Assembly (NCBI GenBank): GCA_022508345.1
Contig: JAFLVK010000001.1
Coordinates: 292,371 to 356,370, forward strand
Length of the DNA stretch: 64,000 bases
Source: Clostridiales bacterium
GTDB taxonomy: Bacteria; Bacillota; Clostridia; Christensenellales; CAG-314
Reading direction: 5' to 3'
Part shown: positions 13,766 through 61,732 of the stretch, piece after piece
Position numbering within the stretch: position 1 is the stretch's first letter
Layout: each line of letters starts with the position of its first letter
Program-made: the position numbers and the translations under genes
Notes under the pieces: model-generated
What the model was told of the DNA's origin: nothing
What the model saw: the letters and a program-made list of their open reading frames with translations, nothing else
Databases searched by the model: none

Positions 13766-13807
13766 CGTCAATTATAAAAGCCAAATCAACATCACACATT
13801 ATCTACT

Positions 13808-13929
13808 AGTGAGGGGTTAGAAGCGAGCAAGACGAGGCAAACGAGCATTTCCAAGGGAGCGTACTAGGCGTACGTGACCGCAGGAAAGCGGAGTTTAACA
13901 AAGTATTGCGACGCTTATAAGCCATCACT
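13808..13929. repeat. Structured repeat, copy A (overlaps the dnaE stop codon)
   Basis: Shares the blocks TTAGA, GGAGYGTACTA, GCGTACRTGAC and AACAAAGYAT with copies B and C. Terminal arms AGTGAGGGGTTA / TAAGCCATCACT. Confidence 0.8.
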
Positions 13930-16900
13930 TCTCGAAGAAGATTACGTTCTTTTCGCCCAGTATTCCTGCCAGTTCGTACTCGATACCGGGGCACTTGCGC
14001 ACACGTCTTTCCAGTTCGTAGTTTTTACCCTCAATGCGAATTTTGACGGGAATTTCGCCCTCATAAGAGCGAAGCGTGTCCATGACCTTTTCGTATTTTT
14101 CGTCGTCACGCTCATCCATCTTGAGCCACAGGGTAATGTTTTTTGTGGGCTGTTCCGCAGTGGGCTCGGGAACCTTGCTGCTTTCCGTGCGCGGGTTTAT
14201 CAGCTCGCGGACGTTAATTTTGTAGGCGTCGCGCGATTCCGTTATCATTCCCTTGACAACTACAAATGCGTCTTCGGCAAAAAGGTTTTTGTATTTTTCG
14301 TACGTCGGGCCGTACAAGCTGATTTCAATTGTGTCGTACTTGTCTTCCAACACACCAAACGCCATGCGCTGGTTGTCCCGCCCTACGGCTACACGGATGT
14401 CGCGCAGTATGCCACCTGTGGTAACAAAACGCTTGGCAACCTCGGGGCGCACAGGTTCGCCGTCCTCCGACCCGTCGGGTACGTATGCCATTGTCTCCGA
14501 CGTGTTGAAGTCAAACAAAAACCGCTTGGCAATGTCGTCGTAGTCGTCCAGCGGAGAGCCGGTCATATACACGCCCAGCACCTCGTTTTCAAAGCTGTAC
14601 AGCACCTGCTTGGGAAATTCCTTTACCTGTTCGCGCTGAGTTCTCGTTGTTGTTTTAATTTCCGGCACAAGGTCGAAAATGGAGATTTGCCCAGTTGCGT
14701 GCTTCTTGTTGCTTTCCGACACTTCGTTGAGCTCCTCAACGTACCATTGCAGCATATCGGCACGGGTACGGTTGAAGCAATCGAACGCGCCGCCCTTGAT
14801 AAGGTTTTCCACCATGCGCTTGTTTATGAAACTGAAGCACCGTTCAAACAGGTCCGTCATGTCCTTAAATTCGCCGTTAGCTTCGCGTTCGTCCACAATC
14901 TGCTTGACAATGCCAACACCAATGTTGCGGATACCGCCCAGCCCGAAACGTATTGCGCCGTTCTCCACGCGGAACTCGTCGCGGCTCCTGTTGATGTCGG
15001 GGGGAAGCACCTCAATGCCCTGCGACTTGGCGTAAGCCATGTACTTCTTTATTTGCGATATATCGCTGATACGGTTGTTCAAAAGCGCGCAAATAAATTC
15101 AACCGGGTAGTATTTTTTGAGGTACGCCGTTTGGTACGTTACGTACGCGTAGCAGGTTGCGTGCGACTTGTTAAATGCGTACTGCGAAAAGTCGTCAAGC
15201 TGCTTGTATATTTCCAGCGCTACGTCCTCGGGGATACCGTTCTTCACGCAACCTGGTACCGTTTCGCCGTTGGTCCACGTTCCGCCGTGTACGAACAGCT
15301 CGCCAAGGTCCTTCATCATTTGCGCTTTCTTTTTGCTCATGGCGTAGCGCACGTTGTCCGCAAGAGCCATGGAAAAGCCCGCAAGCTTTTGCACAAGCTG
15401 CATAACCTGCTCCTGGTAAACGATACAGCCGTTGGTTACGGCAAGTATGGATTCCATAGATGGGTGCAGATATTTTATCTTGGATTTGTCGAACTTGCAA
15501 TCTATGTAGTCGCCGATGTACTGCATAGGTCCAGGACGGTACAGGCTGATTCCTGCAATAATTTCTTCCAAGTGGGTGGGCTTCATCTTGCGCATAAGCT
15601 CGCACATGCCGCCACTTTCCAGCTGGAAGATACACATCGTGTCGCCGGAGCTGATAAGCTCGAATACCTTTTGATCGTCGTAGTTGTCCTGCGCAAAGTC
15701 TATCCTTACGCCGTGGTCCTCGTAAACGTAGTCGCAGGCTTTCTTGATGTCGGTGAGGGTTCTCAGCCCCAAGAAGTCCATCTTGAGTAGCCCCAGCTCC
15801 TCCACCTCTATCATGTTGTACTGGGTTGTAACAATGCCGCCCTTAGCTAGGCTACCGCCGTTTGTCTGCAAAGGAACGTGGTCGGACACCTTTTCACGGC
15901 AGATAACTACGCCCGCCGCGTGCATGCCCGTTTGCCTGGGTGAGCCCTCAAGGCGCATTGCAATGTCAATGAGCTTGTGCGTAGCAGGGTCGTTGTAGGC
16001 GGCAACAAGCTCTTCGGAAATGTAAGTGTCCGCTTCTTTTTTGTATTTTTTGAGCCCCAGTAGATGTTTTAATGTGTATTTGAAATTGTCGGGCACCATC
16101 TTTGCAAGACGGTTGGATTCCGCAATGGGCACACGCAGTACGCGCGCCACGTCGCGAATGGCGTTCTTGGCTGCCATGGTGCCGAATGTGACAATCTGAC
16201 ACACGTTGTCGTTGCCGTACTTGTCGTGAACGTAATCGATGACCTCGCCGCGCCTGTCCATGCAGAAGTCCACGTCGAAGTCGGGCATGGATTTACGCTC
16301 GGGGTTTAAGAAACGCTCGAACATAAGGTTGAAACGGAAGGGCTCCACCTCGGTGATACCGATGAGGTAGGCGATTACACTGCCCGCGCCACTTCCGCGC
16401 CCAGGACCTACCGGGATACCGTTGGTCTTGGCGTAGTTGATGAAGTCCCACACGATGAGGTAGTAATCGACAAAGCCCATGTCGCAAATTACCTTGTATT
16501 CGTAGTCGATCCTGTCCAAGATTTCTTGGCTTGCATTGGGATATTTCTTTTTCAGCCCCTCATCTACCAGGTAACGGAGGTACTCGGGTGAGGACATGTT
16601 GTTGGGCGGAGTGTACAACGGCAGCAGCTTTTCCTTGCCGAAATCCACGTTGCACTTGTCGGCAATTTCAAGGGTTGTATCCATTGCGTCGGGCAACTTG
16701 GGGAACAAAAGCGCCATTTCGTCGTAGCTTTTGAGGTAGAACTCTTCGCCTTGGAATTTCATTCTGTCCGTGTCGTCAAGGTATTTGCCCATCTGTACGC
16801 ACATCATGACGTCCTGTATTTCCGCGTCCTCTCTGTTTAGGTAGTGAACGTCGTTTGTAACAACAATCTTTATGTTGAGCTTGCGTGCCAATTCCACAAG

Positions 16901-22362: not shown

Positions 22363-22389
22363 TTTGAGCCCATTATAAACAACTAACAC

Positions 22390-22425
22390 AAAAAAGACTC
22401 TCATGTATTGTGAGAGTCTTTTTTC
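22390..22425. terminator. Bidirectional terminator between convergent genes
   Basis: agactctca-N7-tgagagtct flanked by an A-run and a T-run. Confidence 0.75.
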
Positions 22426-22438
22426 TTAATAAGCCTAA

Positions 22439-29921: not shown

Positions 29922-30430
29922 TACCAGGTTTGAATTTCGAAGTAAATGATTGCGCCGTTTTCAACGGACATTCCGCTAACGCCGTACTGTGAGTAACCTA
30001 CGGTAACGTCGCCAATCAAATAAGCGGTTGCACTAGCACCCACGCCTTGGTCCTTTTCCACACTGGTGTAAACAGCTACGTATTCGTGTGCGTCAGCGTT
30101 CGGCTGAAGTCCGCCGATGTCGTTGAGCCACTTGCCCGTGTCGCTGTCCGTCCAATCGACAGTTAGCATATCCTGTTGTACAAGGTAGCTGATTACTCCC
30201 TCCACCGTGGTCGCATCCGTGCCGCTACCACCCAGCGTAACTATGTGCGCCGTGTAGGTGTTGTTTCTGTTTTTGATTATGACAGCCATTTGATTGTCCT
30301 TCATTTCGGGAAGCGTTAACTCGGTTAACTCCACCGTCTGAGGCTTGTCAACACATGCGACAAGAGCAACAGTTGAAACAACCAACACAGCTACCAAAAT
30401 CCACGTCAGTAGTCTTTTTGTGTTTTTCAT
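29921..30430 (-). CDS. DUF4430-type lipoprotein (transcobalamin beta-domain-like)
   Basis: Lipobox ALVAC. GVISYLVQQDMLTVDWTDSDTGKWLNDIGGL resembles DUF4430. Confidence 0.65.
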   Translation of the reverse strand: MKNTKRLLTWILVAVLVVSTVALVACVDKPQTVELTELTLPEMKDNQMAVIIKNRNNTYTAHIVTLGGSGTDATTVEGVISYLVQQDMLTVDWTDSDTGKWLNDIGGLQPNADAHEYVAVYTSVEKDQGVGASATAYLIGDVTVGYSQYGVSGMSVENGAIIYFEIQTW

Positions 30431-30490
30431 GTTTTGTCTCCTTTTGTTTTTTTAACTGCAACACAACTTAACAAAAGCAAAATCACTCTT

Positions 30491-30619
30491 GTTTGAGACG
30501 ATTAGAAACGAGATAGGCGCGACGCGCAAGGCTTTTGCGAGGGAGTGTACTAAAGCGTACATGACCGAGCAAAATACGAAGCGCAACAAAGCATATCGAT
30601 GTTTATAACCGTCTCAAAC
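30491..30619. repeat. Structured repeat, copy B (inside the riboswitch leader)
   Basis: Perfect arms GTTTGAGACG / CGTCTCAAAC. Internal blocks TTAGA, GGAGTGTACTA, GCGTACATGAC and AACAAAGCAT. Confidence 0.8.
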
Positions 30620-30750
30620 GGTTGGGCGTTCGGACTTGTTCCTCACCTTGGCAACAGGCAAGGCTTTACCGTAGCGGGACTGTCAATGAATTTCACATTG
30701 TTTCCCCGTAAATGCGCACTGCTTGCGCAACCCGTAGTTATATGCGGTTG
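30618..30750 (-). promoter_or_regulatory. Cobalamin (B12) riboswitch aptamer
   Basis: The minus strand reads GGGGAAACAAUGUGAAAUUCAUUGACAGUCCCGCUACGGUAAAG (conserved core) and AAGUCCGAACGCCC (B12-box-like). Confidence 0.75.
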
Positions 30751-43261: not shown

Positions 43262-43310
43262 TATTCTTCCTGTTAGATGTTTTTTATTAACAATTTAAAT
43301 ATACCGAAAT

Positions 43311-43435
43311 ATTGAGGTGGTTAGATGCGAGCAAGACGAGGCGCGCGAGGAAAACTCGAAGGAGTGTACTAAGCGTACATGACTGAAAGTTGCCACAGCG
43401 CAACAAAGTATTGCGACGCATATCACCGCCTCAAT
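43311..43435. repeat. Structured repeat, copy C (overlaps the prfB stop codon)
   Basis: Arms ATTGAGGTGGT / ACCGCCTCAAT. Internal blocks as in copies A and B. Confidence 0.8.
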
Positions 43436-44525
43436 AAAGTTTCTGTAGGTAATCTTCGATAAAGGGCTGAATATTGCCGTCCATGACGTCTTCGACGTTG
43501 GAGTTTTCAAAGCCCGTGCGGTGATCCTTGACAAGCGTGTAGGGACAGAACACGTAGGAGCGAATTTGGCTACCCCATTCTATCTTTTTTATCTCGCCCT
43601 TCAACGACATCGCTTCTTCCATTTGTTCGCGCTCCTTGAGCTCCGCCAGCTTGCCGCGCAGCATGTTCATTGCCTGTTCGCGGTTTTGTATTTGACTGCG
43701 TTCGTTTTGGCAGGCAACCACAATACCTGTGGGCAGGTGCGTAATGCGAATTGCGCTTTCCGTCTTGTTGACGTGCTGTCCGCCTGCACCGCTACTACGA
43801 TAGGTGTCGATTTTCAAGTCCTTGTCTTCAATTACAATTTCGTTGTCCTGTACCAATTCCGGCATAACCTCAAGGGAGGCAAAGCTGGTGTGCCTGCGCT
43901 TGTTGGAGTCGAACGGAGAAATACGCACCAAACGGTGAACGCCCTTTTCCGCTTTCAAGTAGCCGTAGGCGTTGGTGCCGTTCACCTGGAAGGTTACCGA
44001 CTTGATACCTGCCTCTTCGCCGTCAAGATAGTCCAGCACAGCAAGCTTGTAACCGCGACGTTCGCAGTAGCGCGTGTACATTCGGTAAAGCATTGACACC
44101 CAGTCCTGCGCTTCCGTACCGCCTGCACCCGCATGTAGGGTAAGTATTGCGTTATTTGCATCGAACTTGCCGGACAGCAGGGTTGCGATACGCATTTCGT
44201 TTACCTGGGCGCTGATTTGTGCAAGCTCCGATGCCGTTTCCTCCAGCATGGCTTCGTCACCGTCGCACATAGCAAACAGCTCGGTAACGTCATTTAAGCG
44301 CTTGCTGAGCTTGGCGTAGCTGTTGATCTTGTCCTCGATGTTGCTGGCGCGCTGGCTTACCTGTTGGGCGTTTTTCACGTCATCCCAAAAATCGGGCTTG
44401 TGCTGCTGTTCAACAAGGGCTTGTAACTCGCTTTGCAGCTTTGGAATGTTAAGGCTTTCACCAATACCCGCAAGCTTGGTTTGCAAATCCTTAATATTTA
44501 GTTTTAGTTCCTCAATTTGTATCAT
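43431..44525 (-). CDS. prfB: Peptide chain release factor 2 (single ORF, no frameshift)
   Basis: 364 aa. SPF tripeptide in RISPFDS, GGQ in SGAGGQHVN. The N-terminus is continuous through the usual frameshift position. Confidence 0.95.
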   Translation of the reverse strand: MIQIEELKLNIKDLQTKLAGIGESLNIPKLQSELQALVEQQHKPDFWDDVKNAQQVSQRASNIEDKINSYAKLSKRLNDVTELFAMCDGDEAMLEETASELAQISAQVNEMRIATLLSGKFDANNAILTLHAGAGGTEAQDWVSMLYRMYTRYCERRGYKLAVLDYLDGEEAGIKSVTFQVNGTNAYGYLKAEKGVHRLVRISPFDSNKRRHTSFASLEVMPELVQDNEIVIEDKDLKIDTYRSSGAGGQHVNKTESAIRITHLPTGIVVACQNERSQIQNREQAMNMLRGKLAELKEREQMEEAMSLKGEIKKIEWGSQIRSYVFCPYTLVKDHRTGFENSNVEDVMDGNIQPFIEDYLQKLY

Positions 44526-50941: not shown

Positions 50942-51105
50942 AATAAAAGCGTCCTGCCCTATGACAAGACGCAAAATCTTCCTTTCGCAGTCCCATCTGT
51001 CGGCGCTCGCCGTGCAGGCGATTGCCGCGGAATTTAGCACCTAATAAAAGATTTTTAGGTTGCTGTGGCGTCATCAAGTCCGTCTCTCGACCACTCTCGA
51101 TAGGG
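50942..51105 (-). promoter_or_regulatory. SAM-I (S-box) riboswitch with terminator
   Basis: The minus strand reads UAUCGAGAGUGGUCGAGAGACGGACUUGAUGACGCCACAGCAACC ... AGGUGCUAAAUUCC ... CAGAUGGGA. This is followed by the hairpin GCGUCUUGUC/GGCAGGACGC plus UUUUAUU. Confidence 0.88.
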
Positions 51106-51114
51106 TTACGGCTA

Positions 51115-61496: not shown

Positions 61497-61573
61497 GGCG
61501 GCGTAGCTTAGATGGTTATAGCGGCCGGTTCATACCCGGCAGGTCGTTGGTTCGAATCCGACCGCCGCTACCA
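61497..61573 (+). tRNA. tRNA with CAU anticodon (Met elongator or Ile2), CCA encoded
   Basis: Hand-folded cloverleaf. Acceptor GGCGGCG/CGCCGCT, anticodon arm GCCGG-TTCATAC-CCGGC, T arm GTTGG-TTCGAAT-CCGAC. Confidence 0.85.
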
Positions 61574-61578
61574 AACAC

Positions 61579-61653
61579 GGCTCCTTGGTCAAGCGGTCAA
61601 GACATCGCCCTTTCACGGCGGTAACACGGGTTCGATTCCCGTAGGAGTCACCA
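61579..61653 (+). tRNA. tRNA-Glu (UUC), CCA encoded
   Basis: Acceptor GGCTCCT/AGGAGTC, anticodon loop CTTTCAC, T arm ACGGG-TTCGATT-CCCGT. Confidence 0.88.
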
Positions 61654-61656
61654 TAT

Positions 61657-61732
61657 GGGGAGTTAGCTCAGTTGGGAGAGCATCTGCCTTACAAGCAGGG
61701 GGTCACAGGTTCGAGCCCTGTACTCCCCACCA
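61657..61732 (+). tRNA. tRNA-Val (UAC), CCA encoded
   Basis: Acceptor GGGGAGT/ACTCCCC, D arm GCTC-AGTTGGGA-GAGC, anticodon loop CTTACAA, T arm ACAGG-TTCGAGC-CCTGT. Confidence 0.9.

Follow-up and report, generated by a model that had tools for sequence, protein, structure and literature searches.

The window analysed here, a 64,000-nt stretch of DNA, contains three similar imperfect palindromes of ~125 nt (copies A, B and C), and the question they raise is whether their pairing is kept for the sake of an RNA or of a mobile DNA. The original prediction had described them as a three-member family that could not be named, and had read their structure as a selected fold rather than as the trace of a MITE. 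Our analysis leads to a different answer. With a probability of about 0.8, copies A, B and C represent an ERIC/IRU-type MITE, a palindromic mobile DNA element that is non-autonomous and is found here in uncultured gut Clostridia. The ERIC-like finding is that of a known kind of element in an unexpected bacterial group, and not that of a new RNA class.

Three copies in the window and their fold

All three copies were found on the plus strand, in the common orientation that had been predicted. Copy A (positions 13808-13929, +; covariance-model extent 13805-13933, 118.2 bits) has dnaE on one side and an ABC-exporter gene pair on the other, both encoded on the minus strand. The dnaE stop codon, a TGA at 13925-13927 (-), lies inside the outer 3' arm of the copy, and the DnaE C-terminus (...FFEK) is the same as in homologues. 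Copy B (30491-30619, +; model extent 30490-30621, 117.2 bits) falls, in the gene sense, within the 5' leader of a 169-aa ORF, straight after an AdoCbl-II riboswitch aptamer. Copy C (43311-43435, +; model extent 43309-43438, 121 bits) is flanked by prfB and a DUF3737 gene, each encoded on the minus strand; the prfB stop codon, TGA at 43431-43433 (-), is made at the element boundary, where the empty orthologue has TAT TAA. The copies are spaced 13-17 kb apart among housekeeping genes such as dnaE and prfB. A 20-base core pattern, GGAGNGTACTAN{1,2}GCGTACNTGAC, matched three times in the window versus 0 times in 100 shuffles, and covariance model R1 (described below), run with filters off, returned copies A, B and C as its sole matches in the window, at 117-121 bits.

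Several further features of the window were observed in passing. The AdoCbl-II aptamer (30616-30724, -; 42.6 bits) overlaps copy B by 4 nt, and the 169-aa ORF starts at 30430, ~190 nt downstream of the aptamer, with copy B between the aptamer and the RBS/ATG. Copy B may have displaced, or joined, the expression platform of this riboswitch. A promoter scan placed a sigma-70-like site, TTGAGA-16-TATGCT (9/12), inside copy B at 30617-30590 (-), in gene orientation. Its -35 box is the element's outer arm, and related arms of other copies could give similar weak promoters. Elsewhere, a SAM (S-box) riboswitch (50990-51106, -; 63.5 bits) precedes a minus-strand gene, and three tRNA genes (Met-CAT, Glu-TTC and Val-TAC) are clustered at 61497-61732 (+), on the strand opposite to most genes of the window.

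An alignment of the three copies contains the four conserved blocks that had been noted, together with terminal arms that differ between copies and are self-complementary. Both covarying steps, AAGCG/CGCTT versus ATGCG/CGCAT and GCGTAC..GTACGT versus GTGTAC..GTACAT, are present as well. Each copy, 122-129 nt in length, folds into one long hairpin, or rod. Plus-strand folds of the window copies reach -47 to -52 kcal/mol, with z values of -6.3 to -7.8 relative to shuffles, and minus-strand folds reach -36 to -47 kcal/mol. Peripheral hairpins had been drawn as separate structures, but both the minimum-free-energy folds and the family consensus pair those segments with the opposite arm, so that a single rod results.

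The tip of this rod is nearly invariant. It consists of a 2-3 bp stem, a tandem G.A/A.G step and a 6-bp stem closed by G.U, with a UA(N)GC loop, so that the order of motifs along the strand is stem, GA, G[C/T]GTAC, loop, GTAC[G/A]T, GA, stem. In copy A the apical core (13856-13878, +) reads GG-GA-GCGTAC-TAGGC-GTACGT-GA-CC, including the tandem G.A/A.G step and the 6-bp stem closed by G.U; the cores of copy B (30542-30565, +) and copy C (43361-43383, +) both carry the T-A variant of a covarying pair. While the tip is the invariant portion of the element, the terminal arms, which read T(T)RRRY...RYYY(A)A, are its least conserved portion. A K-turn was considered for the tandem G.A step and rejected on reading the sequence, the step being without an adjoining 3-nt bulge.

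The two strands are not equivalent. With the invariant apical G.U left out, the plus strand shows 181 G.U/U.G cells versus 60 A.C/C.A cells, and 129 G.A/A.G cells versus 17 C.U/U.C cells. It is the more stable strand in 121 of 125 Clostridial copies (mean of -56.5 versus -45.4 kcal/mol) and is purine-rich (A+G 58%), and open frames lie chiefly on the reverse complement in 90 of the 125. The preference for the plus strand as the better folder, proposed for the three window copies, therefore extends to the family. This better-folding strand is antisense to the gene that the element abuts, which points to an intermediate at the DNA level or to selection against hairpins of excessive stability in mRNA.

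A family of repeats at gene ends in gut Clostridia

The family proved far larger than the three members first proposed. When one genome per species was searched with the exact core, matches at more than 114 loci were listed, spread over dozens of MAGs of uncultured gut Clostridia; two single MAGs held no fewer than 15 and 11 of the listed copies, respectively. The hosts listed were Christensenellales/Christensenellaceae, Pumilibacteraceae, Ca. Stercoripulliclostridium, Ca. Scatosoma and Ca. Alloclostridium, and all listed records but one were labelled uncultured Clostridia. One copy was found in a MAG labelled Rickettsiales (L057, JAISGI010000013.1); it represents either a mis-binned contig or a sign of wider host range.

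Covariation is evident at the tip and along the rod. Among 125 core matches the covarying apical pair was C-G in 84, T-A in 41 and any other combination in 0. A MAFFT seed alignment of 31 window-like copies gave a consensus of 34 pairs, 24 of them with compensatory changes. Covariance model R1 was built from this Clostridial seed alignment alone and identified 158 copies in 776 kb of loci. In a 150-sequence alignment, which is fitted to the model and so favours structure, 93.4% of pairing cells were paired, compared with 62% in shuffles and 28-42% when partners were slid; the unfitted MAFFT seed alignment agrees. The covariation score was 0.677, versus 0.177 for shuffles and at most 0.14 for slid partners, and double changes were seen in 30 of the 34 pairs. 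These values bear out the earlier proposal of a selected single-strand fold with covariation. In the window-like subfamily, conservation ends with the hairpin.

A Ca. Stercoripulliclostridium MAG (JAZNIY; L024, L027, L040, L070, L072, L080 and L088) carries near-identical recent copies, tandem arrays and chimeras of two subfamilies. Its copies have an extra conserved tail of ~20 nt on the gene-distal side, GAGGTCTAGGAAAAGTAAGAG in gene orientation, and its intergenic regions are packed with further repeats.

No copy matched an Rfam 15 family when the whole window was searched at gathering scores, and a relaxed search around copy A, with E values up to 10, gave nothing but noise. BLAST of copy C gave no match in phage or plasmid collections, the core pattern had 0 matches in viral contigs, and we found no literature description of such a repeat in Clostridia.

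Placement relative to genes was counted from simple ORF calls for 138 full-length copies. In 117 of these, a convergent ORF of at least 100 aa ends within 600 nt of the element's 3' end, and for ~66 of the 138 the distance from the last paired base to the convergent stop codon is -4 to +8 nt. The mirror image, in which a gene on the same strand stops at the element's 5' end, was seen in ~4 cases. Between convergent genes, the element is always tight against the gene that is antisense to the plus strand. The stop codons at the junction (TAA in 47, TAG in 18 and TGA in 17 cases) are often built from the first bases of the outer arm. The abutted genes are mutually unrelated; a common function for them was rejected, 74 of 82 being singletons. 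The possibility that the element is an intrinsic terminator was likewise rejected, given that most copies are without a T-run after the hairpin on either strand, and no conserved promoter or terminator was found flanking the copies. The repeats occupy 3'UTRs, operon spacers and, once, a riboswitch leader, and will mislead the prediction of ncRNAs and terminators in MAGs of this kind.

Filled and empty sites

Three orthologous sites were found in both a filled and an empty state. At the prfB-DUF3737 site the window is filled (…TAT TGA GGCGG…CCACCTCAA TATT…), L118 is empty (…TAT TAA CGATATTAC TATG), L119 is also empty, and L116 and L117 hold decayed stubs comprising only the first 20-30 nt of the element. 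The dnaE-ABC exporter site is filled in the window and in L121 and empty in L120, L122 and L123, and DnaE ends …FFEK in all of them. The third site is empty in the window (22363-22438), and the orthologous spacer in MAG HAN102 (L049) is filled by a copy that begins at the stop codon (GAT GAT TGA GTTGG…). A canonical terminator is located downstream of the insertion point both in L049 and at this empty window site.

Two observations belong with these sites. The L121 copy (L121:5035-5230) has a mutated core, GGATTGTAC..ACGTACAT, and, beside its apical hairpin, an insertion of ~40 nt; it is a decaying copy. At 22385-22422 of the window, between convergent genes and downstream of the HAN102 insertion position, a symmetrical A-run/T-run hairpin, AAAAAAGACTCTCA...TGAGAGTCTTTTTT, looks, as judged from its sequence, like a bidirectional intrinsic terminator.

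Other comparisons extended this picture. Between L008 and L039, the last codons of the gene are replaced. The orthologous filled sites L077 and L099 have arms in common and differ in their interiors, and the Stercoripulliclostridium loci contain tandem, nested and chimeric copies. Copies arrive, decay and recombine, and thus behave as a selfish non-autonomous element and not as a conserved host RNA gene. The claim that the structure points to a fold rather than to a MITE is not supported by these observations, since filled and empty orthologous sites, stubs, arrays and chimeras are all MITE behaviour. Covariation, too, is expected if only foldable copies propagate.

With respect to the target, two clean filled/empty comparisons fit insertion between the T and the AA of a TAA stop codon in a TTAA context, with the GA of the element remaking TGA. 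No TA target duplication was seen in those two comparisons; some subfamilies end in TA...TA, for example TAGACC...GGTCTA. A general model of insertion into stop codons at T^RR was rejected, as the 14 of 32 reconstructions that fitted it are at chance level. We also rejected insertion into a pre-existing terminator hairpin and copying of the outer arms from the target, because empty sites are without arm sequence. Clustering of 643 flanking ORFs revealed no recurring transposase-like family near the copies. The clusters were common families such as ABC ATPases and leucine-rich surface proteins, as judged by reading sequences and not by a domain scan. At L025:4101-4702, two inverted copies lie ~450 nt apart between long ORFs that look phage-structural on reading of their translations only; this inverted pair encloses no transposase.

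These data bear on two readings in which the hairpin acts primarily as RNA. A host-selected cis-regulatory RNA, in which the host keeps a gene-sense hairpin at the stop codon for its control of mRNA stability, termination or operon polarity, with mobility as a secondary property, would fit the sharp, orientation-specific placement at stop codons and the position of elements upstream of canonical terminators where these could be located, and ERIC provides a precedent for orientation-dependent effects on mRNA (PMC2229807, PMC3049150). However, copies are absent or decayed to 20-30-nt stubs in close relatives, the abutted genes are functionally unrelated, and it is the antisense strand that folds better, so that we regard such a role as decidedly unlikely. 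An independently transcribed family of plus-strand small RNAs, antisense to gene 3' ends, would be in keeping with a fold that is better by ~11 kcal/mol on average, and with G.U and G.A mismatches being tolerated, and loops being purine-rich, on that strand. We consider it very improbable: the copies have no conserved flanking promoter or terminator, conservation stops at the hairpin in the window-like subfamily, copies are polymorphic and decaying, and the same strand asymmetry is found in ERIC, which is co-transcribed with flanking genes (PMC2229807). The free-standing plus-strand antisense RNA that had been weakly favoured at the outset is unsupported. At the two sites with a recognisable canonical terminator, L049 and the empty window site, this terminator is downstream of the insertion point, and a gene-sense transcript is thus expected there.

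We favour a mobile ERIC-type element, which could work as follows. Copies with a locatable terminator lie upstream of it and would be co-transcribed in the gene sense, as part of a 3'UTR or an operon spacer. Pairing would be kept since only hairpin-forming copies would be propagated by a trans-acting enzyme. The propagated form is probably plus-strand single-stranded DNA, which would be recognised at the conserved tip. After insertion, a weaker gene-sense RNA hairpin would begin at the stop codon, and terminating ribosomes would have to melt its base. Such melting could alter mRNA decay or the relative expression of operon genes, an effect on mRNA of the kind already proposed for ERIC in Yersinia.

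[quoted passage not shown] Their central inverted repeat, CCCCAG-GA-GCTTAC-ATAA-GTAAGT-GA-CTGGGG, familiar from the ERIC-PCR primers, has the same architecture as the Clostridial core. The string GGAG-C(G/T)TAC-loop-GTA(C/A)G-TGAC is near-identical in the two, and both have the tandem G.A step and the G.U-closed stem. The third stem pair differs, being G-C in the Clostridial family and T-A in ERIC; U-A occupies this position in 21 Clostridial copies. As a check of the 44-nt ERIC core, sites of 100% identity were found in 5424 of 5426 E. coli genomes.

Covariance models matched in both directions. R1 matched the ERIC copy in nine of 10 enterobacterial loci, on the GGAG…TGAC strand and across the whole model, with scores of 9.4-23.1 bits (six with E<0.003). 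Model R2, built from ERIC copies alone, gave 31 matches with E<1 in the Clostridial loci, 13 of them with E<0.01, the best at 34.4 bits (E 3.6e-5). The R2 matches that were compared coincide with R1 copies on the same strand, except for L032:3122-3231, which is absent from the R1 list. Over the whole window the top two R2 matches were copies B (15.5 bits, E 0.17) and A (14.7 bits, E 0.28), which singly are non-significant, yet have the right strand and ends and rank top in a search space of 128 kb; copy C was not listed. A sequence-only profile scored 12.6 bits and its match was confined to the core, which indicates that the relationship to ERIC is distant and is carried largely by structure plus core. 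By these reciprocal searches, the family for which no name could be offered is related to ERIC/IRU. In the plasmid collection, the ERIC consensus matched Enterobacterales only.

The resemblance extends beyond the core. ERIC (127 bp) and the Clostridial element (~122-129 nt) are both single long imperfect hairpins in which the centre is most conserved. The ERIC consensus adopts the same rod fold, with a plus-strand stability advantage in 12 of 12 ERIC sequences, and open frames lie chiefly on the reverse complement in 11 of 12, as they do in 90 of 125 Clostridial copies (compare PMC2759123). Placement is alike as well: in six of 10 annotated ERIC loci a convergent CDS, among them potI, ybhI and ABC permeases, stops 0-11 nt beyond the 3' end. 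De Gregorio et al. in 2005 reportedly found that ERICs overlapping or adjoining stop codons have one common orientation. Both families are multi-copy and intergenic, with presence/absence polymorphism. ERIC is described as a 127-bp MITE with TA termini and a TA duplication that is co-transcribed (PMC2229807, PMC2759123, PMC3184786, PMC10969869, PMC3049150) and acts on the mRNA upstream of it in a manner that depends on its orientation, with ribosomes needed to unmask an RNase E site (PMC2229807, PMC3184786, PMC10969869, PMC3049150). The two families also differ. There is little primary-sequence identity between them outside the core; the ERIC termini are a 7-bp TATACCC repeat, whereas the Clostridial terminal arms are highly variable; and the TA duplication of ERIC was not seen at the two clean filled/empty sites of the Clostridial family, which look like T^AA insertion. 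ERIC hosts are Gammaproteobacteria, while those of the Clostridial family belong to the phylum Bacillota (Clostridia).

Could the resemblance be convergent, with an unrelated Clostridial palindromic repeat carrying a short apical motif by chance? Such an origin would agree with a sequence-only match limited to the core, with a TA duplication that is not confirmed and with hosts in different phyla, the ERIC range being given as Enterobacteriaceae and Vibrionaceae (PMC10969869). This range describes where ERIC was found and is not a structural criterion. Convergence is harder to reconcile with reciprocal covariance-model matches that span the whole model on the correct strand, or with the length, rod architecture, strand asymmetry, open-frame asymmetry and stop-codon placement that the two families have in common, and we hold it to be rather unlikely. 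Integron attC sites have a folded strand that is antisense to the upstream gene and a hairpin that abuts its stop codon. The Clostridial element has both properties and, like attC, keeps structure more than sequence, which is what would favour structure-specific recombination sites, of the attC or another type, as substrates of an integrase. The box sequences led us to reject this reading, which we find hardly credible. Whereas attC sites have RYYYAAC...GTTRRRY boxes, a variable tip and cassette arrays near intI, the Clostridial arms read TTRRRY...RYYYAA, and the conserved part is the tip, not the base. In addition, the window copies are 13-17 kb apart between housekeeping genes, and we saw neither cassette arrays nor an integrase recurring nearby.

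An ERIC-type mobile element in these hosts matters for ERIC itself. ERIC repeats have been used for decades in strain typing, and the reviews consulted name no established transposase for them. A related and diverse family in gut Clostridia extends the ERIC range to another phylum. That the apical hairpin, the strand asymmetry and the stop-codon placement survive such a distance suggests that these features are the ones most likely to be mechanistically essential. A search for genes common to ERIC-bearing lineages also becomes possible and may yield candidates for the mobilising enzyme. We judge the significance to be moderate, its basis being that the ERIC architecture reaches across phyla and that this offers a handle on the mechanism of ERIC mobilisation. 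Much more tentatively, and with some doubt, we propose a cross-phylum ERIC-type superfamily in which the invariant, strand-specific apical hairpin (the tandem G.A and the G.U-closed 6-bp stem) might be the recognition site of the mobilisation machinery, and in which elements might always enter in one orientation, either within a stop codon or immediately behind it (at T^AA in the window subfamily), with the stop regenerated. If this were true, the Clostridial branch would supply the comparison required for identifying the ERIC-moving enzyme.

Other palindromic repeats share some of these properties. REP/REPIN sequences, mobilised by RAYT, are likewise structure-dependent, non-autonomous palindromic repeats that are kept foldable by selection for mobilisation, and they too are often found near stop codons in 3'UTRs, forming clusters. 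However, REPs are palindromes of 20-40 nt headed by GTAG or CGTC and set in inverted doublets, with the RAYT gene flanked by REPs, and in REPINs conservation lies at the ends, whereas the Clostridial element is a single 125-nt rod conserved at its tip. Assignment to REP/REPIN was rejected, as there is no GTAG head and, across 115 loci, no RAYT-like gene or recurrent small transposase-like ORF. Correia (CREE/NEMIS), RUP and other TIR-type MITEs resemble the Clostridial element in being ~100-160 bp long, intergenic and co-transcribed, and in forming RNA hairpins that affect mRNA processing (PMC2229807, PMC10969869). Correia- and RUP-type MITEs are distinguished by conserved terminal inverted repeats and a TA duplication, whereas the Clostridial element is least conserved at its ends and invariant at its tip.
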